Notes under the pieces: generated by a model
What the model saw: only the letters and a program-made list of their open reading frames with translations
Databases searched by the model: none
What the model was told of the DNA's origin: nothing
Translations under genes and position numbers: made by a program
Shown: one piece after another, positions 873-48,158 of the stretch
Numbering within the stretch: position 1 is the first letter of the stretch
How the letters are laid out: every line of letters begins with the position of its first letter
Assembly: GCA_964558075.1 (NCBI GenBank)
Contig: CAZLCY010000001.1
Coordinates: 1 to 48,158 of the forward strand
DNA from: an uncultured Bacteroidales bacterium
Lineage (GTDB): Bacteria > Bacteroidota > Bacteroidia > Bacteroidales > UBA1715
Direction: 5' to 3'
Length of the DNA stretch: 48,158 nucleotides

Positions 873-925
873 TTCCTCTTCCTCCGTTTTTTTTTGATTT
901 GGCCGTTTTCTTCCGACCTGCTCAT

Positions 926-934
926 ATTATAGCA
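926..934 (-). promoter_or_regulatory. extended -10 promoter (TGCTATAAT) for the ParB-like operon
   Basis: The minus strand reads ctgTGcTATAATatgag about 50 nt upstream of the ATG at 872. No good -35 box is present, but the TGn extension is. Confidence 0.4.
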
Positions 935-961
935 CAGTTTTTTCGCTCTATATTTCCAAAA

Positions 962-1073
962 TGTTACAATTTTGTTAATAATTTGTTAACATTTTATCGC
1001 ATGTGCTAACAAATGACCGCATTTGCTAACAAAACGTTCGCAGATGCTAACAGTTTCTTCGCATATACTAACA
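962..1073. repeat. iteron-like array: 3x TGTTA(C/A)N (11-bp period) facing 4x CGCAnnTGCTAACA (20-21-bp period)
   Basis: Plus-strand copies of tgttaca, tgttaat and tgttaac start at 962, 973 and 984. The 14-mers cgcatgtgctaaca, cgcatttgctaaca, cgcagatgctaaca and cgcatatactaaca lie at 998, 1018, 1039 and 1060. The core TGTTAGC is therefore in the opposite orientation in these four. Confidence 0.8.
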
Positions 1074-1312
1074 GTATTTCGCTGGTTGATGGCAGGTAAA
1101 ATAGTGTAAACGCCGATATTTACTGCATTTCCATCATAAGCATTTTATACTCATGTCGTATATAGCGGAGATGGCATGCTCCTCCTCCCTTTCTCCCTGC
1201 ATACCAAAACACAGTTATTATAAGGGTTCCGGCCCGTTTCAGCTCATTCCAGCCTATACCAGCCTGCATCAATTGCCCATCATTTTTTTATTTTTACCCG
1301 GATGTATTCGCC

Positions 1313-1584: not shown

Positions 1585-1667
1585 GGGGGCGAGATTGGCA
1601 CTCGACATCGACTAAAGCGTGTTTTAGCGCACTCGATTGGACGCGGGTTCGATTCCCGCCGCCTCCA
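1585..1667 (+). ncRNA. tmRNA-like tRNA-like domain only (mini-tmRNA, no tag ORF or pseudoknots)
   Basis: The acceptor stem is GGGGGCG/CGCCUCC with a G3:U70 pair and A73. The T arm is GCGGG-UUCGAUU-CCCGC. The 5' AGAUUGGCACUCGAC and 3' UUGGAC mirror the tmRNA D-loop analogue and GGAC linker. The interior is only about 31 nt (AUCGA/UCGAU helix plus a CUAAA-GCGUGU-UUUAG hairpin). No canonical anticodon arm can be drawn. Confidence 0.7.
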
Positions 1668-1675
1668 TTTATAAT

Positions 1676-7898: not shown

Positions 7899-10800
7899 TT
7901 ATTGTATATGAATTTCATTTTTTCGTTGGTTATCGTCCTCATCTGGATCTCGTATTACTTCACCTTGAACGTATTTAAGCCATAGACGTTCTTGTGGACT
8001 TAATCCATCTTTTTTAATGCGTTTTATTGTTTGTTCATTAAGCACACCATGAACATCGCTTGTTGTAAATGGTTTTTTCTCCGTCCGCCTCTGCGCGTTT
8101 CTAAACCTTTTATATGAAATATCAAAACCATTATTAATGGCTTCATCTTTAAATGCGTGTGCTAATCGCGAAAGTATTGCATCTTGTATTTCATATACAT
8201 TTTCTTCAGTAATTTTTTCATGTCTATTTCGAAGTTTAAGATAATCAGCGGCGGCATTATATTGACTCATTGTAACTTCTGGTTGATTCATTAACTTTTT
8301 AATAGTAAATTTATTGGCGCGGCTAACATATGTATTAATTATATCACTTTCTTTGTTTTGTTCCCAATTAGTTATATTGTAACCGCGTCGTTTTGCTTCA
8401 CTATATCGGGCTTCATCGGCAGATCTTACTCCGATAAGATTGAGCATAAGTTCCAGTCCATCATATTCTCTAACGTGTCCAGTTCTTATATCAACATTTA
8501 TAGGATATGTTCTTGCATCATTTAAAACTTTAAGACCTTCTTGTCCAAGTAAACTTACAGTACTATCTGCAAGAGTATCTTGCCATGACCAATTTTCATC
8601 ATTAAGTTCATTAGATTTCTCTATTTTATAATTAAGGGCGGCTCGACCAAAATTAAGTAACATTGCATGTGTAAGTAATGCACGAGTATCTCGCGCTTCT
8701 TTTTCTACTTTACCGGACGCAACAAGTTCGGGTTTACTTGATTGATATAATAAATCAACTATTTGTAAAAATGGAGTTTCAATATTCATAACACCACCCG
8801 GTTCAAATCTTGATCTCCAATCACCATTAGTTACTGAATTCACTACGCCTTCATCAAGAATGTCTAATACTACTAATGCACCATAATTCACAACTTTATT
8901 CATTACTTCCTGTTCTTCGGTTGATTGATCTAATTTTTCGGCACGTTGTGCCATCATATCATGAATAACACGTTTTATTCCGGTTTCTAATTGATGTGTT
9001 GCTTTATCAAGTAATTTAACTCGAAATGCGCCCTCGCCTTTTTCTTGATGTAAATTACGTTTTTTAGTAACATTAGCGACACCTTTAAGTGTCGAGTTTG
9101 TTGCACCTGTAAATATATTACTAAATCCCTGAAACATTCTATATCCAACAACAGATCCAATACCACCCAGCATTATTTCAGTAGCTACTTCTAACGGAAG
9201 TTGACTAATTTTTTTCATACTGCCCGGTTCTGCCATTTTCCATAAACCAGAAATTCCCTCTTCAGCTACATCATCTAAAGTACCAACTAACGCTTTCATA
9301 ACATTTAAATTTTTAGACCACGCATAAGTTTTAAATTGATTTAATGCTAAATCAATTATAGGGATTTGGAATATTAATCCTTTATTAGCGGATGTATAAT
9401 TAAAATGAACTGCGTTAATGCCTTCGGTAGTATTAATGACTGCATCTTTAAGTTCAGTCGTCCATGTAGTTGGATCGGTTATATCAACGTTAGGATCTTT
9501 TAACATTGTTACCATATCCATATCACCGAATTTGGCTTGAACTTCTTTCAATCGACCTAACTTTCCTTCAATACTTTTGCGCTTAACAGCAGGTAAATCC
9601 GGGTTTTTAAGTAAAGATTCAAACTCGGTAATCTTATTACCAACATTTGCAGTTCTTTCGTCTGCCCAATTAAGGTAAGCATAGAATGAGCGCAGTCTAT
9701 TATATTGTTCACTTTTTTTAAAGAAGTTAAGATGATCATTAACTGTTCTATTCCATACTCTTGTTCCGACGCCACCTTGTATTCCAAATTGACGTGTGCC
9801 TTCAGTAGCAAATGATTCGGGATCGAGTAATCCCAGTTTATATGCTACCTGCATTTTTTCTGGCATTTGTTTAATTAATTCGTCGTGAGGTAATCCTCTA
9901 TTTTGAAGTTTGATTTTTAAAAATCTCATGGAATCTGCGGTTGCTTCAACATGCGATCGTGTTGCAACTTTAGTTCCATATATAGCGTTATCGAATAATG
10001 CTTGCGTTGTATTAACTAACGCTGAAGCCGGATTATGTTTAACTTTCAATCCAGAGATTACGTTTCTTATTCCATATACTAAATTATTAAGAGTATTTTT
10101 TCCACGAGTGCGACCCATTACTCCTGACATTAATTTTTCAACATTATCCGCGTATTTACCACCGCCCGCTTTTCTTAAATTATTAACCACGCCTTCTGCT
10201 TCAATGAGTGCAGGCTCAAGCATAATTTTACGTCCAGCTTCCCTAAAATCATCTTCAAGAATATCTTTCAGGTTAATTTTATATTCCATCATTCCACGTT
10301 CGGGATCTACTTCGTAAGTTCTTCCGGCAACTTTTTCTTTAGGTAAACGACCTAAATCCATACCGCCTTTATTACTTATATTTTCAACAGAAATAGTTTT
10401 ATTAACACGATTTTTAAAATCTTCAAAATCTTTTATGTATTGATCCGGGGCTTCATTAAGTCCCGTATTTAATAAAAGATCTTTCATATCTTCTTTATCA
10501 AGATTACTCATGTTTCTAAGTAAATCTTGTTTATAAAAATCAAGTTGGCGTTTTTGACTAAACAATGTTTTATGTCCGGCGCGTTTACGATATTCCAGTA
10601 AGTTGTTAATTTTATCTTTAAAACTCTTTTTAACTTTTTTTGCATGTTTGTACATGTGTTCTCTAACATCTTTAAACCGCACATCTTGTGCAGTTTTAAA
10701 TTTTCGAATTTCTTTATTTCGTTCTATTCTATAGGCATGTATTTCCTTTTCTTTTTTATAATTTAATTCAGCTTTGTATTCATTGACTTTATTAGTAATA

Positions 10801-13800
10801 TCATCCGGTTTATATCGACCATCAGCTTCTAATGATTTTTTAAATGTTTCAACGCTTTCATTTATGTTTGCGTTCCACTCTTTACGTAATTCGCTTACAT
10901 ACTCTTTACTAAAAGACATTAAGTCTTTTTTCATTTGTTGTTTATTAACAGATTTAGCTTTTCTAAATCTTGAAACTATTTCACTTACATCACTATCAAA
11001 TTCTTTTTGTTGAATTTCAAAACCGCGTTTTAACGGTTCGGTTTTTAATTCTGCTTGCTCATTAGCCATTTTGTTTAATTGTTTAACATATTGAGGATCG
11101 TTCATTTGTTCTCTTAATACTTTCTTTTTTGTATTAATAAGATAATACACACGTTTTTCTATTTCGTCTATACGTTCTGTCGGGATGTTAATTCCAAGTT
11201 GATCTCTCATTGCTTGATATGGATCGTCGAGATGGAATGTATCAAGAAAAGTTTTTACGTTAGTATCATCCGCTGAAAAACCTACGTTATCACCTCTGCG
11301 ATACATAAAATCATATAAATCACCATAAGTAGTTCCAACATAAGATTGAATACCATCTGCTGATGATTCAGAAAGTTTTTTTCGAACTTCACCCCAGCCT
11401 TTAGTTGTGAAATATTTCTCAACATACATGTCTTTGGCAATATCTAATGCTTGTTGTTTTTTATCAACAGCGAGTTGTTTAACTAAACGTTTAGCGTTAA
11501 TATTTTTTGATACTTGATCAAATAATTCATCCTCCGTTGCAAGTCCTGTTTTATCAAGCATAAATTTAGTAATCTTTTCACGTTCGGTAGCGTCGAAAAT
11601 TTGTCCGGTTTTATATTCGTAACCAAAGTTTTTTTCTGCAATATCCGCTAATATTCTTGATTTACCCATGTTTACAGCATCTCTTGTATTTTTTGCAAAT
11701 AATGCAATCCGAGGGCCATCCTCTGAATGATAAATCACTTTTTGATTTCCTTCAACCGGTTTTTTAGGTAACCAATAATTAGGCTGTTTTTCTGGTAAAC
11801 CGGGTGGCTGAAAATCTGGATCGCTTAACAATTCATTAACACGTTTTGTTCTTTCAGTTCTTGTTGCGTTCCAATAAAATTCAGGATCGTTATCGACAAT
11901 ATAACGCTCGGTAGCGTTCCTTTTTAATTGTTCATATGAAGGTTTAAACCATCTTTCTTGTATGGTTTGATATACTTCTGCGAAGTTCTTATCTTCGATT
12001 AATAATTTATCGATCATATCAGAATCTTGATTACGCATAGCAGTATCCCATAAATTAGTAATTCGTTTAATTTCTTCTTTATCAAATTTAATTAAAGAAT
12101 CAGAAATGTCGGCCATACGGTGCATTTGTTGCGCATCGGCCATTTGTGTTAATGCTGAAGTTTCATCCCACAGCCTATTTACTGCCGCGATATGATCACG
12201 TAGTTCGTCTGCGCGTGGCAACATAAGTTCAAATAATTTACCAAATTCACGTTGGACTGGCATATATTGATGTACAGACAAACCCATTCGACCGAGCTTA
12301 GAACGTACTTTACCTACTGGAGTTTTTACATTTTCTCCCGGATGTGTAAAAGGTTCTATTTTGGTTCTTTTAGTATCAACAGTGCCCCTTAATTTATTTA
12401 GTTGATATTTAAGATTATTGTATAAACGTATTACACCATCTTTCACAGGTATTCCCGCGTGGAATTTCGCGAATGATTTCGAATATAGTGCATCATCTAA
12501 CCTTATCAAATCAGTATATTGTTCGGGATCAGCAATTTGTTTTAACGCATTAACTAAATCATCATCTAAAACATTATCCAACATTTTAATTGTTGATTTC
12601 TTTTTAGTAATATCAAGATTAGTGTTTTCAAGTAAGAATCTAACTCTATCCTCATTTAAATCTAACGGCCCATCGCCAAATTTAATATCAATGGGTGTAT
12701 CAAATTCTAAAGCGTTTTCTTCCGCGGCGCGCAAAATGTTATCCATTTCAATTCTAAAAATATCGGCCATTGCATTGTTATTTATTCTATCTTTAATAAA
12801 ACGTTTTCCAGCTCTGTAAAGATATTTTGAACCTTTATTTTTTCGAACGTGATTAATTAAACGTTGCTCCATTTGCGCAATCGTCGGGGCCGCTTCTAAA
12901 TCAGAATACATTATTCCTTCTGCATCCGCTTTTTTAACATCTTGTAGCGGTGTAAGAATCGTTTCTCCTGTAAATGTATCGACTTCATCTATAAGATGAC
13001 CATCGCGATGTAGCGTTCTCACGCGATAACCCGCTTTATAATCGTAGTTAGGATCAGGCGTTAAGCCCGTTCTTTCTTGTATGTCCTTAAATGTTCTTGC
13101 GATTCTTTCTTTATCAACCGCACTTTTACCATCTAAGACTTCCTGAAAATTAAATCCCATAAATTCAGCAGATAAATCATCTTTAAGATTATTCAAATTT
13201 CTAAGGGCGGAGCGTAATTTAACCTCCATTTTTTTGTCTGCATTTCCACTATCTAAAACAATATTTATGTTTGATATTTTTTCGTCGATATCATCAAGAT
13301 TTCTAACCAAGTTGTCAATTGTAGGCGAATTTTCAATTTCGTGATTAGCAACTCGACGTGCTACAGTCTTTTTGAATCCAATTTCGTTTGCTTGCTTTAA
13401 TAATTCTTGCACCTGTTCTGGGGTGGTTTTACTATAATCCTTTGGAACCAATTTAATGAATTCATCTTCAGATTGAATTATAGCATCATTTACAAGATTA
13501 CCGATTATTTCATTAACTTTGCCTTTAGATTTAATTGCTAATTGTTCCATTTCCGGGGTTATTTTTGCACCACGTTCCAAAAGCTTTTGATATTTTTCGA
13601 GCGTATTTCCAGCGTCAATAACTTCGTCAACTTGACCACTTTTCATGATAAGGTTCGGTATGTTATCACTATCAACAGCATTTTTAGGTAACATTCCCGG
13701 ATCAAAGTTATAGATTTGGTTCATTGAATTTTTAACTTCACCATGTTTAACAACATCATCGATCGCACCACCAAAATTATAAAATGCAGAAAAATCAACA

Positions 13801-15017
13801 ACCATATCAAGTGCGCCACCAACAAATTCTGCGCGATTGACCGCTATCATTCCTTCAGTTTCATTAAGAACGGCCTCACTCGGCGAATACAACCAATCTG
13901 CAAATCGGCCAAAAGTTCCTTTTTTACCAACATATTTTTTGAATACAGGATCGATGATTTCAGTTTTAGAGTCGCCCTTTTCAACTTCATAATTTATTTC
14001 GGTAGTATATTCTCCCGACCAAGTTTTATCTGCGCGGCGAATCTCTTGAAATACCGGTTTCATTCCTTCACTCACAAAACCGAGTAGCGGTATTCCGGCA
14101 ACGACATCACGCTCATCTAAATTATATAAATCAGCATTACCATTTAAAATATCTTCCCATGTTTGTCTAAAATTAACTAATTGTCCTGCCGCTTTAGCCG
14201 TCATTCGGCCCGGTAAAGAACCTAAATTCATAACACCGGTACCGGCGCCAGTAAGTGCATAATTTAAATCTTTAGAAGAACCACTCCGAAAAGTCGCGGC
14301 AAATGCGCCTTTAGCTTGTCGTATTTGTTCTGGAGAATATTGCTCTAATCGTAAATGTTGTGCCCATTGTTCGTCCGTGGGGGCGGGCCAATATACGACA
14401 GCATCATTTATATCTTCGCGTTTTAATTCATTTTCTCGCGTGAATACTGAATTATTATTTACGTCCGATTCCATAATTTCCGAGGCAATTGGAACTTTTT
14501 CAATTATAGTTTTTTCTTCATTATATTGTACCCACTTTTCGTTTTGTTTACCTAAAAATGCGCCTATATTTATAAGATCATTTTTAACACCCGTTATGTC
14601 TAATTTAATTCCATAATCATCGGATTCTTCCATCTCTTCAATATGTTTAACTAAATTTTCTCGTGTAAGGCTCCGATCGGGTTGTTTGCTTTGATATTCA
14701 GATAAAGCGGGTTCAATTAAATCACTTTTGAATAGTTCATATTCTGATGAACCGAGGGCAGTAAGTGGTTGACGTGCTCTATTTTGTATTTTACGTGCTT
14801 TATTAAAAACGAAATTTTTTGCATCATCAGTTAATACTACGCCTTCAGGTAATTGACCATTTTTAACTACATAGTCAACGTAGGGGCTAAGTTTTTTAGC
14901 CCCCTCTCCTTCTTGTTCGTTTGCCGGTGTTTCTCTAATAGGCGTTTCAGTTTTTTGATCATAATATGGCGATAAATCTAATTTGAAGCCATTATCGTCA
15001 TAGTTTAAAAAGTTCAA
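7899..15017 (-). CDS. giant virion-associated protein (2372 aa), putative internal/ejection protein
   Basis: This is a single uninterrupted 7.1-kb ORF. Its position, after the fibre and disordered-protein genes, resembles podovirus internal-protein modules. I recognised no polymerase, lysozyme or peptidase motif. Confidence 0.6.
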   Translation of the reverse strand: MNFLNYDDNGFKLDLSPYYDQKTETPIRETPANEQEGEGAKKLSPYVDYVVKNGQLPEGVVLTDDAKNFVFNKARKIQNRARQPLTALGSSEYELFKSDLIEPALSEYQSKQPDRSLTRENLVKHIEEMEESDDYGIKLDITGVKNDLINIGAFLGKQNEKWVQYNEEKTIIEKVPIASEIMESDVNNNSVFTRENELKREDINDAVVYWPAPTDEQWAQHLRLEQYSPEQIRQAKGAFAATFRSGSSKDLNYALTGAGTGVMNLGSLPGRMTAKAAGQLVNFRQTWEDILNGNADLYNLDERDVVAGIPLLGFVSEGMKPVFQEIRRADKTWSGEYTTEINYEVEKGDSKTEIIDPVFKKYVGKKGTFGRFADWLYSPSEAVLNETEGMIAVNRAEFVGGALDMVVDFSAFYNFGGAIDDVVKHGEVKNSMNQIYNFDPGMLPKNAVDSDNIPNLIMKSGQVDEVIDAGNTLEKYQKLLERGAKITPEMEQLAIKSKGKVNEIIGNLVNDAIIQSEDEFIKLVPKDYSKTTPEQVQELLKQANEIGFKKTVARRVANHEIENSPTIDNLVRNLDDIDEKISNINIVLDSGNADKKMEVKLRSALRNLNNLKDDLSAEFMGFNFQEVLDGKSAVDKERIARTFKDIQERTGLTPDPNYDYKAGYRVRTLHRDGHLIDEVDTFTGETILTPLQDVKKADAEGIMYSDLEAAPTIAQMEQRLINHVRKNKGSKYLYRAGKRFIKDRINNNAMADIFRIEMDNILRAAEENALEFDTPIDIKFGDGPLDLNEDRVRFLLENTNLDITKKKSTIKMLDNVLDDDLVNALKQIADPEQYTDLIRLDDALYSKSFAKFHAGIPVKDGVIRLYNNLKYQLNKLRGTVDTKRTKIEPFTHPGENVKTPVGKVRSKLGRMGLSVHQYMPVQREFGKLFELMLPRADELRDHIAAVNRLWDETSALTQMADAQQMHRMADISDSLIKFDKEEIKRITNLWDTAMRNQDSDMIDKLLIEDKNFAEVYQTIQERWFKPSYEQLKRNATERYIVDNDPEFYWNATRTERTKRVNELLSDPDFQPPGLPEKQPNYWLPKKPVEGNQKVIYHSEDGPRIALFAKNTRDAVNMGKSRILADIAEKNFGYEYKTGQIFDATEREKITKFMLDKTGLATEDELFDQVSKNINAKRLVKQLAVDKKQQALDIAKDMYVEKYFTTKGWGEVRKKLSESSADGIQSYVGTTYGDLYDFMYRRGDNVGFSADDTNVKTFLDTFHLDDPYQAMRDQLGINIPTERIDEIEKRVYYLINTKKKVLREQMNDPQYVKQLNKMANEQAELKTEPLKRGFEIQQKEFDSDVSEIVSRFRKAKSVNKQQMKKDLMSFSKEYVSELRKEWNANINESVETFKKSLEADGRYKPDDITNKVNEYKAELNYKKEKEIHAYRIERNKEIRKFKTAQDVRFKDVREHMYKHAKKVKKSFKDKINNLLEYRKRAGHKTLFSQKRQLDFYKQDLLRNMSNLDKEDMKDLLLNTGLNEAPDQYIKDFEDFKNRVNKTISVENISNKGGMDLGRLPKEKVAGRTYEVDPERGMMEYKINLKDILEDDFREAGRKIMLEPALIEAEGVVNNLRKAGGGKYADNVEKLMSGVMGRTRGKNTLNNLVYGIRNVISGLKVKHNPASALVNTTQALFDNAIYGTKVATRSHVEATADSMRFLKIKLQNRGLPHDELIKQMPEKMQVAYKLGLLDPESFATEGTRQFGIQGGVGTRVWNRTVNDHLNFFKKSEQYNRLRSFYAYLNWADERTANVGNKITEFESLLKNPDLPAVKRKSIEGKLGRLKEVQAKFGDMDMVTMLKDPNVDITDPTTWTTELKDAVINTTEGINAVHFNYTSANKGLIFQIPIIDLALNQFKTYAWSKNLNVMKALVGTLDDVAEEGISGLWKMAEPGSMKKISQLPLEVATEIMLGGIGSVVGYRMFQGFSNIFTGATNSTLKGVANVTKKRNLHQEKGEGAFRVKLLDKATHQLETGIKRVIHDMMAQRAEKLDQSTEEQEVMNKVVNYGALVVLDILDEGVVNSVTNGDWRSRFEPGGVMNIETPFLQIVDLLYQSSKPELVASGKVEKEARDTRALLTHAMLLNFGRAALNYKIEKSNELNDENWSWQDTLADSTVSLLGQEGLKVLNDARTYPINVDIRTGHVREYDGLELMLNLIGVRSADEARYSEAKRRGYNITNWEQNKESDIINTYVSRANKFTIKKLMNQPEVTMSQYNAAADYLKLRNRHEKITEENVYEIQDAILSRLAHAFKDEAINNGFDISYKRFRNAQRRTEKKPFTTSDVHGVLNEQTIKRIKKDGLSPQERLWLKYVQGEVIRDPDEDDNQRKNEIHIQ

Positions 15018-44992: not shown

Positions 44993-45493
44993 TTAAAACA
45001 ACGAATCATATTTAACGTCAAATCTACTGATTGAATTATTTTTCATTGTAGGCATTTTAATTCCTGTGGTTGTGTAATGATTGATTTTTTTCCCTGAAAA
45101 AATTAATTGAAGGGAATTTATGTTTCTTGCATTGTCGATGACAACACGTTTTAATTTATGCAAAGAATAAAAATCATCAAATATGGCATACAATTCATCG
45201 CGGGAAATATCCCATAAAAAACCTTGAAAGTTAATTCCAAAGTTTAATGTATTTGTAGTAACAAAAGTTCTTTTTGTCAATGGGAATAGATTCAAAAAGA
45301 TTAATTCATTAGATAATTCTTGTTTATTGAACATTTCCTTGAATTGTTCGGGTTTTCTTATTCTTTTTCCATAAATTCTGAAATACGCTTTAATTTCATC
45401 AATTTTTTTCACATAAATTCCTTCTTCTAATATAATTTTTGAAGCTTTCTGTACCATTTTCTTGCATCCAAGTAACGAATGGTATCCAGTCAT
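44993..45493 (-). CDS. hypothetical protein (166 aa or shorter)
   Basis: From the ORF track. It overlaps the upstream amidoligase-like ORF by 95 nt. The internal ATG at 45457 would reduce the overlap. Confidence 0.45.
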   Translation of the reverse strand: MTGYHSLLGCKKMVQKASKIILEEGIYVKKIDEIKAYFRIYGKRIRKPEQFKEMFNKQELSNELIFLNLFPLTKRTFVTTNTLNFGINFQGFLWDISRDELYAIFDDFYSLHKLKRVVIDNARNINSLQLIFSGKKINHYTTTGIKMPTMKNNSISRFDVKYDSLF

Positions 45494-46703
45494 ATTTCAA
45501 GTTTGAACTTTCGAATTCAAACAGGTTAAAATATTCGAAAATCATATGTATTAGTTCGATTGTTGCAAGAAAAGTTTCCGCATTCAGGGTACCTCTAAAG
45601 TACCTAAATTCATATGTTTGACTTCGCGATAGATTAATACAGTTATGATGATTGTACACGTTTTCAAACTGCAAGAAGAATTCATCGTGAACCTCATCGG
45701 CAGTTTTTTTGCCGTCAACATATTTTATAATGTCATCATAAGATTCGACCGGCTCACACGTGGAAGTGTTTATAAATTTTCTGTTATATGTAGATTCTTT
45801 GCGCCGGCAAAAATTTCGAATTTCATCGTTGTTATCTGCGAAAAATTTGAGCACATGTGGCATTAACCTGTTTGTGCGGTTATTTTTAGATATATGTATA
45901 TGCAAGCCACAGGTTAACGTATTATCGCTCCTGTACCCTACCCGTATTAATTTTTCAAACCAGAAACGAAAGTTATGCTTTTTCAATGTATGGAAACAGC
46001 ATGGTTTTGAAACTATCTCAAAACCGTTGTCAAGAGATGAATCCCATGACATGCCCGCAACGATATTACTTGCATAATTCATTATCAGCTTTGCGGCGTC
46101 ATTGTGCCGTGTACCAGTTTGTGAAGCTCTATCAGCTTCAATTTCCAGTTCGAAACCGATAAGAGTTTTTTCGTTCGATCGCGTGCATTTTTCGCAACGT
46201 GTCCACTTGAACCGATCTTTAGGAATTTGATGATAATCATGTATTGCATTAATTGTATTATATCCGCACGGACATTCACCTTCCGTACGATAATGACCAC
46301 AACCGGGACATTTAGTTGCGTTTAGGTCATCTATACAATTATAGCATATAGTTTCAATTTCCAAATCATGATACATAAAAAACGTATAATAACTGTGATG
46401 ATAATTATCACAGTTTGCACAACACACGTAATTCTCAAAACATGATTTGCAAACATGAACTTCCACTTCCGCAATACATTCTATTACAATATAATTATAC
46501 TCGTAATTGTCTTTGCGTATTAAACCAGTGCAATCATTGCACCGTGTATAACATCGCGGACAATACTCTGTAGCGGGAATTATCCTTTTACAAAGCGGGC
46601 AGTTTTTATATTCTTCATAAAATGCCCATTGTATTGTTGATGGCATTGTATTCATGCCTATTTTTATATTTAAATAAAAATTCATTATTATCTTCTTTCC
46701 CAT
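45399..46703 (-). CDS. amidoligase-like (glutamine synthetase/GCS2-fold, Amidoligase_2-type) protein with N-terminal multi-CxxC zinc-ribbon array
   Basis: The C-terminal half has IGFELEIE, WDSSLDNGFEIVSKP, LTCGLHIHIS and TYEFRYFRGTLN in the order typical of this family. The N-terminal roughly 150 aa carry at least 8 CxxC/CxC pairs. The start could be the ATG at 46685. Confidence 0.6.
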   Translation of the reverse strand: MGKKIIMNFYLNIKIGMNTMPSTIQWAFYEEYKNCPLCKRIIPATEYCPRCYTRCNDCTGLIRKDNYEYNYIVIECIAEVEVHVCKSCFENYVCCANCDNYHHSYYTFFMYHDLEIETICYNCIDDLNATKCPGCGHYRTEGECPCGYNTINAIHDYHQIPKDRFKWTRCEKCTRSNEKTLIGFELEIEADRASQTGTRHNDAAKLIMNYASNIVAGMSWDSSLDNGFEIVSKPCCFHTLKKHNFRFWFEKLIRVGYRSDNTLTCGLHIHISKNNRTNRLMPHVLKFFADNNDEIRNFCRRKESTYNRKFINTSTCEPVESYDDIIKYVDGKKTADEVHDEFFLQFENVYNHHNCINLSRSQTYEFRYFRGTLNAETFLATIELIHMIFEYFNLFEFESSNLKYDWIPFVTWMQENGTESFKNYIRRRNLCEKN

Positions 46704-46825: not shown

Positions 46826-46865
46826 TCTTCCATCCTTCTTTTAGTTAATTTGCCTTTCATATTGC

Positions 46866-46906
46866 AAAAAAAAGGATGAATAATCCCCATAAGAGGATTA
46901 TCCACC
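46866..46906 (-). terminator. rho-independent terminator
   Basis: The minus strand forms an imperfect hairpin, GGUGGAUAAUCC...GGAUUAUUCAUCC, directly followed by U8 (A8 at 46866-46873 on the plus strand). Confidence 0.6.
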
Positions 46907-46915
46907 CGAGTATTT

Positions 46916-46999: not shown

Positions 47000-47028
47000 A
47001 TTTCATACTCCTTTTTTTTAAATACAAA

Positions 47029-47052
47029 TTACCCGGATTTGTCGACTCCGGG
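47029..47052. repeat. conserved 24-nt hairpin repeat, copy 1 (minus strand: CCCGGA-GUCGACAAA-UCCGGG-UAA)
   Basis: ttacccggatttgtcgactccggg is identical to 47772-47795. A truncated copy lies at 48148-48158 and a 10-nt remnant at 1294-1303. Confidence 0.9.
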
Positions 47053-47108
47053 CGTGCCGGATAGAGGGAAGCAAGCCCGGCACCTGAAATAGGTAAGGTC
47101 TTACTTCC
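47053..47108 (-). ncRNA. unclassified pseudoknotted RNA element
   Basis: The minus strand has GGAAG (47108-47104) complementary to CUUCC (47071-47067). That CUUCC lies in the loop of a 7-bp hairpin, GUGCCGG (47083-47077) paired with CCGGCAC (47060-47054). A small GUAA-GACC-UUAC hairpin lies between them. Together these give an H-type pseudoknot topology. Confidence 0.4.
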
Positions 47109-47156
47109 AAAAAATAAAGCCATCATATATCCTCCAAACAGATATACAATGGCTTT
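47109..47156 (-). terminator. rho-independent terminator after the 169-aa gene
   Basis: On the minus strand AAAGCCAU pairs with AUGGCUUU, with an inner AUAUC/GAUAU helix, followed by AUUUUUU. Confidence 0.6.
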
Positions 47157-47159
47157 ATT

Positions 47160-47669
47160 TTATATAAATTCCCTTTGTATATATTCTTCATAGGCCGTTT
47201 TACGGCCTATGATGGCTATTGTCGTTGTGGTTGTAGTGCTATTCATATGCACTACTTTTTTATTTTTACCTTCGGGGAGGCAAACTATGCCTTTCCCGTC
47301 GAAATAATACACATTACAGGGAGCGACATCGTAATGTGCAATTTTACGATGCTCTCCCCCCCCTGTTGTGTATTCTATGACTTCTGAAGGCTCTATGTCC
47401 TCCAGAAGGACCCTTGATTTTTTTCCCTTTGGAACTATAAAAGTTCCGTAGGGTTCTTTTCTTATTTCCCATCCGGGAATCAACCATTCAGGGGAATGGT
47501 TTAATATGAAACCGGGTTTTATTTCCCCGGTTTTAGTATTAATTGCATCTCCCCATTCATGGGGGTTGGTGCAATTAAAAAATGGATTTATACTCTTATG
47601 ATAATGCAGACCTGCCATAGTCTGCATTTTACGGAGCTGTTTAAGCTCCTTTTTATTTAGTTTTTTCAT
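47160..47669 (-). CDS. hypothetical protein (169 aa)
   Basis: I set the start at the ATG at 47669 (MKKLNKKELKQ), after AAAGAGGAAG. The track's 30-codon N-terminal extension runs through the hammerhead sequence. Confidence 0.55.
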   Translation of the reverse strand: MKKLNKKELKQLRKMQTMAGLHYHKSINPFFNCTNPHEWGDAINTKTGEIKPGFILNHSPEWLIPGWEIRKEPYGTFIVPKGKKSRVLLEDIEPSEVIEYTTGGGEHRKIAHYDVAPCNVYYFDGKGIVCLPEGKNKKVVHMNSTTTTTTIAIIGRKTAYEEYIQREFI

Positions 47670-47714
47670 TTTTTCTTCCTCTTTCTCCCCTTTTCGCCGG
47701 AGCGCGGTTGATTT

Positions 47715-47771
47715 CCGTTTCGCTCCCCGCTGGTTGCGGAGGCTCATCAGCCCTGTCAATTCAGGGGACGG
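47715..47771 (-). ncRNA. type III hammerhead self-cleaving ribozyme
   Basis: The minus strand reads CCGU-C/CCCUG-AAUUGA-CAGGG-CUGAUGA-GCCUCCGC-AACCA-GCGGGGAGC-GAAA-CGG. All invariant core residues are present: CUGAUGA, GAA, the A15.1:U16.1 pair and the G10.1:C11.1 pair. The GUC cleavage triplet places the cut between 47767 and 47766. Confidence 0.85.
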
Positions 47772-47795
47772 TTACCCGGATTTGTCGACTCCGGG
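47772..47795. repeat. conserved 24-nt hairpin repeat, copy 2
   Basis: It is identical to 47029-47052 and lies immediately 5' (on the minus strand) of hammerhead stem III. Confidence 0.9.
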
Positions 47796-47817
47796 TGGGC
47801 CGTGGGAAGGGAGTGAA

Positions 47818-48075: not shown

Positions 48076-48103
48076 TTTCTTCCTCCTAAATTTTTACTCC
48101 CAT

Positions 48104-48150
48104 CCCCCTTTAACACGGGCTTTGGACCGTCCTCGGCGGGGTTAAAGTTA
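48104..48150 (-). ncRNA. twister-like self-cleaving ribozyme (core)
   Basis: The minus strand reads UAA-CUUUAAC-CCCGCCGAGG-ACGG-UCCAAAGC-CCGU-GUUAAAG-GGGG. P2 is CUUUAAC/GUUAAAG and P4 is ACGG/CCGU with an 8-nt loop, UCCAAAGC. The loop GC can pair with the upstream GCC, and the loop CC with the 3' G-run. This is the twister double-pseudoknot layout. Confidence 0.6.
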
Positions 48151-48158
48151 CCCGGATT
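48148..48158. repeat. conserved hairpin repeat, copy 3 (truncated at the window end)
   Basis: ttacccggatt matches the first 11 nt of the repeat. Joined to window position 1 (gggccgggatag), it gives a shorter CCCGG-CCCAAU-CCGGG hairpin on the minus strand. Confidence 0.7.

Follow-up and report, generated by a model that had tools for sequence, protein, structure and literature searches.

A 56-nt stretch on the minus strand of a tailed-phage contig (47108-47053) is a non-random, strand-asymmetric structured stretch, well beyond chance, and abuts the third copy of a boundary hairpin in an operon that also holds a twister and a hammerhead ribozyme. We tentatively read it, at a probability of roughly 0.38, as a non-catalytic structured RNA leader that is seated on this third boundary hairpin and would insulate and stabilise the message of ORF3. 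We favour this reading because the crossing helices of the element are exceptional (reached by 0 of 500 shuffles and ranked first of 12,026), because the sense strand outscores the antisense strand and helix S1 is near-certain in the nested ensemble, because the adjoining hairpin recurs exactly at the hammerhead junction and in truncated form at the twister junction, and because no ribozyme or riboswitch model rises above about 14 bits. Against it stand the nested minimum free energy fold, which needs no helix S2, and a loop 3 that is short for a 9-bp S1.

The operon and its phage

The window, by which we mean the whole stretch of DNA analysed, is a complete 48,158-bp contig of a tailed phage with a GC content of about 35%. 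Nearly all phage genes, including those for a family A DNA polymerase, a primase, a helicase and the portal as well as a 2372-aa ORF, are borne by the minus strand. The minus-strand operon at the contig end comprises, from 5' to 3', a hairpin tail, a twister-P1 ribozyme, ORF1, a 24-nt hairpin, a hammerhead ribozyme and ORF2, and continues with the terminator T1, the 56-nt element, the 24-nt hairpin again, an AU-rich tract, a Shine-Dalgarno sequence (SD), ORF3 and the terminator T2:

48158-48148, minus strand: repeat copy 1, a truncated hairpin tail just 5' of twister-P1
48096-48148, minus strand: twister-P1 ribozyme (Rfam 46 bits, E 1e-8 and 4e-7), which starts after the copy-1 hairpin tail
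Between twister-P1 and the copy-2 hairpin, minus strand: ORF1, 85 aa, its stop codon inside a 14-bp hairpin
47772-47802, minus strand: repeat copy 2, immediately followed by the hammerhead
47712-47774, minus strand: type III hammerhead ribozyme (Rfam 25.5 bits, E 0.01, below the gathering score)
47160-47669, minus strand: ORF2, a 169-aa orphan protein, 5' of T1
47109-47161, minus strand: T1, intrinsic-terminator-like, after ORF2, with arms at 47111-47131 and 47141-47161
47029-47059, minus strand: repeat copy 3, CGGCACGCCCGGAGUCGACAAAUCCGGGUAA, with its hairpin at 47052-47032, closable by G47053-U47031
46916-46999, minus strand: ORF3, a 27-aa hydrophobic peptide, MKIELTWQEIAMIAWIIMVIFMAVIAC, with the SD AAGGAG 8 nt upstream
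46874-46907, minus strand: T2 after ORF3, from the consensus scan

As the preliminary description had drawn them, a terminator lies directly upstream of the element and a 27-aa hydrophobic ORF with its ribosome-binding site (RBS) downstream (46999-46916). T1 consists of a 21-bp AU-rich stem followed by the U-tract UUUAUUUUUU and looks bidirectional; it is absent from the consensus terminator scan that listed T2. A promoter scan of the region found no sigma-70-like promoter on the strand of the element, and since the element also lies right after the strong-looking T1, its transcription is perhaps poor. The stop codon of ORF1 lies in the loop of a perfect 14-15-bp hairpin (GGGAGGGGAGUGAA/UUCACUCCCUUCCC, 47838-47803, minus strand), which is devoid of a U-tract and is located immediately 5' of the second module.

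The sole second carrier obtained from cluster look-ups is L011, a 1046-bp Logan contig from another run. Its 3' 570 nt, which contain T1, the element, the third hairpin and ORF3, are identical to the window except for a change from A8 to A9 before the SD. All other differences fall within the 5' 480 alignment columns: ORF2 shows scattered, synonymous-looking changes, the copy-2 loop is altered, and the spacer that separates the hammerhead from the RBS (47712-47690, minus strand) is almost wholly rewritten relative to L011 positions 176-200. Through the A8/A9 indel, the 45-aa ORF that gene callers placed over the element becomes one of 42 aa in another frame in L011, a frameshift that argues for the 56-nt element being non-coding.

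A search of 5.8 billion proteins gave no homologue of ORF1 or ORF2, blastn and tblastn searches against 50,697 phage records returned nothing relevant, INPHARED holds no close relative of the phage, and scans of IMG/VR with ORF2, the amidoligase and the helicase gave no close relatives. Homologues of the amidoligase are at most 32% identical, and their loci (L005-L008) are non-syntenic and without ribozymes. The 19-mer and 21-mer of the hairpin are absent from IMG/VR and GTDB genomes, and a 22-mer of the element from GTDB genomes. Several apparent matches were rejected: four hairpin matches in JGI metagenomes (L001-L004) are chance matches within high-GC coding DNA, the single IMG/VR match to the skeleton pattern of the element is an unrelated GC-rich terminator, the matches to a twister-core 14-mer in IMG/VR (at least 120) are mostly due to chance, and the cluster mate P0039/L013 is a clustering artefact.

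With a hydrophobic core of 17 residues and a strong SD, ORF3 resembles the small hydrophobic toxin ORFs of type I toxin-antitoxin systems. The element could be viewed as a structured 5' UTR belonging to a type I toxin-like module, in which ORF3 would be a toxic membrane peptide and a plus-strand antisense RNA would run over the leader. The enclosure of the 27-aa ORF by two terminators, the bidirectional appearance of T1 and a sigma-70-like site on the plus strand (46856-46884) that is directed into ORF3 are in line with such a module. We nevertheless judge it very unlikely: the site scores only 9/12 and is one of nine in the region compared with 4.6 +/- 2.8 in shuffles, the peptide matches no toxin family, the antisense strand is less structured, and phage early regions often encode small membrane peptides for unrelated reasons. 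Examples of type I toxin mRNA leaders are those of hok, fst and aapA. The element shares with them a very short hydrophobic ORF, a highly structured leader and flanking terminators; in contrast to them, an antisense gene is not demonstrable here, the RBS is not sequestered and no family matches.

Several other features of the contig were recorded. A mini tmRNA-like gene at 1585-1670 (plus strand) adjoins the genes for tRNA-Met, tRNA-Gln and tRNA-Leu(UAA) at 1676-1917; the Rfam tmRNA model scores 51.9 bits on it (gathering score 47) and spans model positions 1-374 in just 86 nt. Acceptor end and T-arm are thus present while the mRNA-like part is missing, and ARAGORN calls no tmRNA. The divergent intergenic region by the tRNA cluster contains the perfect microsatellites (ATAC)x5.8 and (TAT)x9.3 at 2111-2164. 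At about 920-1110 (minus strand) lies a non-coding stretch in which GTTAGCAnnTGCGA-like units recur (TRF period 21 at 1037-1082) and which has the extended -10 sequence TGcTATAAT a short way upstream of the first gene of the operon (872-489); this stretch is probably an early promoter with operators, or an origin. The 2372-aa ORF (7899-15017, minus strand) encodes a helical, charged protein for which PHROG, Pfam and PDB gave no sequence match and in which neither T7-like nor DxDGD motifs were recognised; it may be an internal virion protein that is ejected. An Amidoligase_2-domain protein (45399-46703, minus strand; Pfam E 2.9e-10) has a Cys-rich N-terminal half.

Helices and fold of the element

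On the minus strand, on which index i equals window coordinate 47109-i, most pairings proposed in the preliminary description were recovered. GGAAG is present at 47108-47104, GUGCCGG (47083-47077) is complementary to CCGGCAC (47060-47054) across a 16-nt loop that contains CUUCC, and this second helix (S2) is followed by G47053, the 24-nt hairpin CCCGGAGUCGACAAAUCCGGGUAA (47052-47029) and the RBS. The small GUAA/UUAC hairpin that had also been proposed was given up, as it is worth only -0.3 kcal/mol and is incompatible with the extended first helix. This helix, S1, is longer than GGAAG/CUUCC and comprises nine contiguous base pairs (GGAAGUAAG/CUUGCUUCC). S2 has 7 bp, or 8 bp with an added terminal G-U pair, GUGCCGG(G)/(U)CCGGCAC, and contributes -12.8 kcal/mol on its own. 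The parts of the element are, from 5' to 3':

47100-47108, minus strand: 5' arm of S1, GGAAGUAAG; pair probability >0.98 in the nested ensemble
47084-47099, minus strand: pseudoknot loop 1, ACCUUACCUAUUUCAG; in the plain hairpin, the 5' arm of the inner helix plus the apical loop
47076-47083, minus strand: 5' arm of S2, GUGCCGG(G); may instead pair within the inner helix or, through CCGGGC, with the boundary-hairpin 5' arm
47067-47075, minus strand: 3' arm of S1, CUUGCUUCC; from the nested fold and the crossing-helix scan
47062-47066, minus strand: loop 3, CUCUA; from the crossing-helix scan
47054-47061, minus strand: 3' arm of S2, (U)CCGGCAC; 47059-47054 already within the 31-nt repeat

Since ViennaRNA scores no pseudoknots, a crossing-helix scan that sums helix energies was written for them. 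The best crossing pair consists of S1 with 9 bp and S2 with 8 bp (L1 = 16, L2 = 0, L3 = 5; with S2 taken as 7-8 bp, L2 = 0-1 and L3 = 5-6) and has a summed energy of -24.7 kcal/mol, which none of 500 dinucleotide shuffles reached (mean -8.4, sd 3.2). Across the whole contig and both strands, the element ranks first among 12,026 60-nt scanning windows, the next unrelated locus scoring -19.0, and the sense strand at the element (-24.7) outscores the antisense strand (-17.2). The nested minimum free energy structure obtained with ViennaRNA is a 42-nt imperfect hairpin formed by S1 and an inner helix (-20.4 kcal/mol, z -2.8 relative to shuffles). This hairpin includes S1 and is mutually exclusive with S2, whose probability is 0.001 in the nested ensemble, an ensemble that excludes pseudoknots. 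By a rough Dirks-Pierce-type estimate of our own, the pseudoknot lies at about -21 kcal/mol and is thus roughly iso-energetic with the hairpin. Having a loop 3 of only 5-6 nt against a 9-bp S1, the pseudoknot is sterically borderline, so that some fraying of S1 would be needed.

The region of the element contains four CCGG-core segments and, because CCGG is self-complementary, the chance of S2-type pairings is inflated. The complementarities might have no dedicated function and be a by-product of duplicated CCGG-core hairpin arms lying between a terminator and a repeated DNA or RNA signal, a reading that we hold to be rather unlikely. In its favour are the position of the S2 3' arm, six of whose seven bases lie inside the 31-nt repeat, and the similarity of the flank UAUCCGGC to the hairpin's own 3' arm AAUCCGGG. 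Furthermore, outside the 7 nt in the repeat, the sequences upstream of copies 2 and 3 have no significant similarity, and the two carrier strains show no evidence of selection. S1, on the other hand, is unrelated to CCGG and is itself a 9-bp helix, the first rank in the contig and the shuffle result are hard to obtain by accident, and by our own estimate a fixed arm would find a Watson-Crick partner of 7 bp within about 45 nt with a chance of roughly 0.003.

The segment GUGCCGGGC has three exclusive partners, namely the inner helix, UCCGGCAC (forming S2) and GCCCGG of the boundary-hairpin 5' arm (CCGGGC/GCCCGG). Such a choice between three mutually exclusive, strong pairings would suit a conformational riboregulator, in which a ligand, a protein or the ribosome shifts the partner and thereby controls ORF3 or the availability of the hairpin, and the AU-rich unstructured tract between the structure and the SD, which recalls the T4 gene 32 operator, would suit it as well. 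Yet no riboswitch family matches the element (SAM-V, whose gathering score is 41, reaches 14.2 bits, and this on another sub-stretch), and no terminator-like U-run is found directly 3' of the boundary hairpin. In the folding analysis, the SD and the AUG stay mostly unpaired irrespective of the element. A sequestration of the RBS was not seen and was dropped as a reading, and no simple translational switch is visible. We consider a riboregulator of this kind unlikely.

Boundary repeat, ribozymes and known RNA families

The repeat unit comprises 31 nt rather than 24. Copy 3 (CGGCACGCCCGGAG...GGGUAA, 47059-47029) aligns with copy 2 (CGGCCCACCCGGAG...GGGUAA, 47802-47772) with 29 of 31 positions identical, and the 24-nt hairpin is the same at 47795-47772 and 47052-47029. 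Beyond the 31 nt, the upstream flanks of the two copies are no more alike than shuffles, and an extended homology upstream of them was rejected. No S2-type partner was found upstream of copy 2 or near the contig start; with copies 1 and 2 devoid of such a partner, the pseudoknot is not a conserved part of the module. The loop of the copy-2 hairpin in L011 has another sequence and another length (GUCGACAAA to GCCGAUAA) while its stem is kept, so that the hairpin would act via its stem and not via its loop sequence or a fixed spacing. Between copies 2 and 3, moreover, the base 5' of the stem changes from A to G, which exchanges an A-U for a G-U pair. Both observations speak for an RNA hairpin and against a DNA site, such as an operator or promoter, with fixed spacing. 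Three further proposals were rejected. A kissing dimer via the palindromic GUCGAC loop is at odds with copy 2 of L011, in which the palindrome is missing; CCGG avoidance or clustering as a DNA-level signal is at odds with 127 CCGG sites genome-wide and no avoidance; and an N4-like hairpin promoter for a virion RNA polymerase is at odds with the 2372-aa protein, which has no polymerase match or motifs, and is also disfavoured by the variation in hairpin loop length between strains.

In the minus-strand sense, the contig starts with ...CUAUCCCGGCCC and ends with AAUCCGGGUAAC..., and its ends (1-12 and 48148-48158) correspond to the flanks of the 31-nt repeat on either side, about 14 nt short of a complete copy. 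L010 (2151-2162), an independent Logan contig, terminates at exactly the same base as the window. This suggests that the genome is circular or permuted and that the assembly was broken inside copy 1, which would give the order ORF0, module 1, twister.

Both Rfam ribozyme alignments begin at the UAA after the hairpin, and thus the ribozymes lie 3' of the hairpin. The element lies 5' of it, so the earlier statement that its placement matches that of the twister and the hammerhead is wrong, and nothing ribozyme-like is present 3' of copy 3, where the sequence reads UAAUUUGUAUUUAAAAAAAAGGAG. By direct reading, the hammerhead core is intact (GUC, CUGAUGAG, CGAAAC; predicted cut after C47767), and the hammerhead is invariant between the window and L011. 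Going by the known cleavage sites of the two classes, the twister and the hammerhead of this operon are presumably cut 7-8 nt past the hairpin. After cleavage, nearly the whole twister fold and stems I and II of the hammerhead are predicted to remain upstream of the next RBS; with these remnants 5' of the RBS, every cistron would be preceded by a compact structure 10-25 nt before its SD. In the predicted fold of 47806-47763 (minus strand), ACGG upstream of copy 2 can form base pairs with CCGU, which is the 5' strand of stem III of the hammerhead. Such a conformer would be a competitor of the active ribozyme, and after cleavage the 3' end of the upstream message would be fully paired.

The element was compared with all 4227 Rfam models by cmscan (E<=10), at first over a 1.46-kb slice and afterwards, under lax filters, over one of 126 nt. 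In neither slice did a ribozyme or riboswitch model match the element at E<=10, and the best Rfam scores are 10.8-14.2 bits compared with gathering scores of 41-90. The assignment to an unknown class in the preliminary description therefore holds, with no Rfam family near threshold (best 14 bits), as does the misfit to the hammerhead, twister, pistol and HDV-like layouts, on which the covariance models and, for HDV-like and pistol, hand fits agree. For instance, the CUGANGA and GAAA cores of the hammerhead are both absent from 47108-47029, and no hammerhead covariance model matches at E<=10. The twister-P1 model matches 48096-48148 only, and neither twister nor twister-sister matches the element. 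The pistol and hatchet models gave no match at E<=10 when the 126-nt slice was searched under lax filters. By hand, a pairing of the loop ACAAA with a downstream UUUGU in the manner of pistol was rejected, since a 3-nt loop spanning 6-7 bp is sterically impossible and the pairing is missing at copy 2. HDV-like folds, theta included, were likewise rejected: with S2 as P1, the 16-nt insert is too small for P2 and P3, and with the boundary hairpin as P4, the next 30 nt, which would serve as J4/2, are without any C. No HDV-like covariance model matches either. Among pseudoknot riboswitches (SAM-II/V, preQ1, fluoride and guanidine-III), no family matches the element; the best riboswitch score, that of SAM-V (14.2 bits, gathering score 41), falls at 47005-47043, off the element.

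These results bear on a further reading, in which the pseudoknot and the boundary hairpin (47108-47029, minus strand) would together form a small self-cleaving ribozyme of a hitherto undescribed class and cleave read-through transcripts at the third junction. A twister and a hammerhead occur within 1.1 kb, all three structures are tied to the same 31-nt module, and the candidate is compact (about 80 nt including the hairpin) and scores higher as a pseudoknot than any other in the genome. The surroundings of hammerhead and twister loci have historically been a productive place to look for new classes, and the same neighbourhood logic yielded pistol, hatchet and twister-sister (PMC6765202). However, the element and the two real ribozymes flank the module on different sides, no covariance model of a self-cleaving class matches it at E<=10 in the 126-nt search, and the HDV-like hand fit fails for want of a P3 and of a C in the 30-nt would-be J4/2. 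In addition, no homologues were found from which conserved unpaired nucleotides could be read, and the plain hairpin is equally stable. The analysis gave no positive sign of catalysis or of ligand sensing, and we regard a new self-cleaving class as very unlikely and as the least probable of the readings considered.

The leader reading and related systems

For the preferred reading, a non-catalytic structured leader, we propose the following mechanism. S1 (9 bp) would form in either fold, whereupon GUGCCGGG would choose between closing the plain 42-nt hairpin and pairing with UCCGGCAC, the 5' flank of repeat copy 3. Pairing of GUGCCGGG with UCCGGCAC would create an H-type pseudoknot, in which S2 abuts both S1 and the boundary hairpin, and with S2 formed a quasi-continuous stack of about 24 bp would end up about 20 nt before the ORF3 SD. 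In transcripts that read through T1 or start near it, the leader may then insulate and stabilise the ORF3 message, and by analogy the self-cleaved twister and hammerhead bodies at the 5' ends of the ORF1 and ORF2 messages may play a parallel role. We infer transcription of the region, the fold that wins in vivo and the stabilising role alike, and for the last of these it is analogy only that suggests it.

Three further known systems help to place the element. With the intercistronic hammerhead and twister ribozymes of bacteria and phages it shares the operon, the 31-nt module, compactness, the capability to form a pseudoknot and the proximity to an RBS; in contrast to them, it is located 5' and not 3' of the module, has neither CUGANGA/GAAA nor the twister AAGC/GGG signature, and matches no covariance model. 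The translational operator of T4 gene 32 is an H-type pseudoknot leader, whose coaxially stackable helices lie 5' of an AU-rich unstructured tract leading to the SD. The element likewise can form two coaxially stackable crossing helices 5' of an AU-rich tract that leads to the SD, whereas it differs in an extra hairpin before the AU-rich tract, in a long loop 1 (16 nt) and in the downstream gene, which here encodes a 27-aa membrane peptide and not an RNA- or ssDNA-binding protein. Stem-loops at the 5' end are also used as mRNA stabilisers, for instance in the ompA, ermC and aprE leaders and the SP82 stabiliser. Similar to these, the element is a stable structure distant from the RBS that does not occlude it; in contrast to these, it follows a terminator, and a 5'-terminal placement is only putative.

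What hammerhead and twister ribozymes do for bacteria and phages has yet to be settled (PMC6765202). The operon described here represents a compact natural case, in which three junctions carry the same 31-nt module, two of them together with different ribozymes and one with an unrelated pseudoknot-capable structure. If the element cleaves, it would be a new ribozyme class found through guilt by association, at the third junction of an operon with a twister and a hammerhead. If it does not cleave, the operon would allow one to ask whether ribozyme scaffolds and non-catalytic structure share a boundary role in insulating or stabilising messages.
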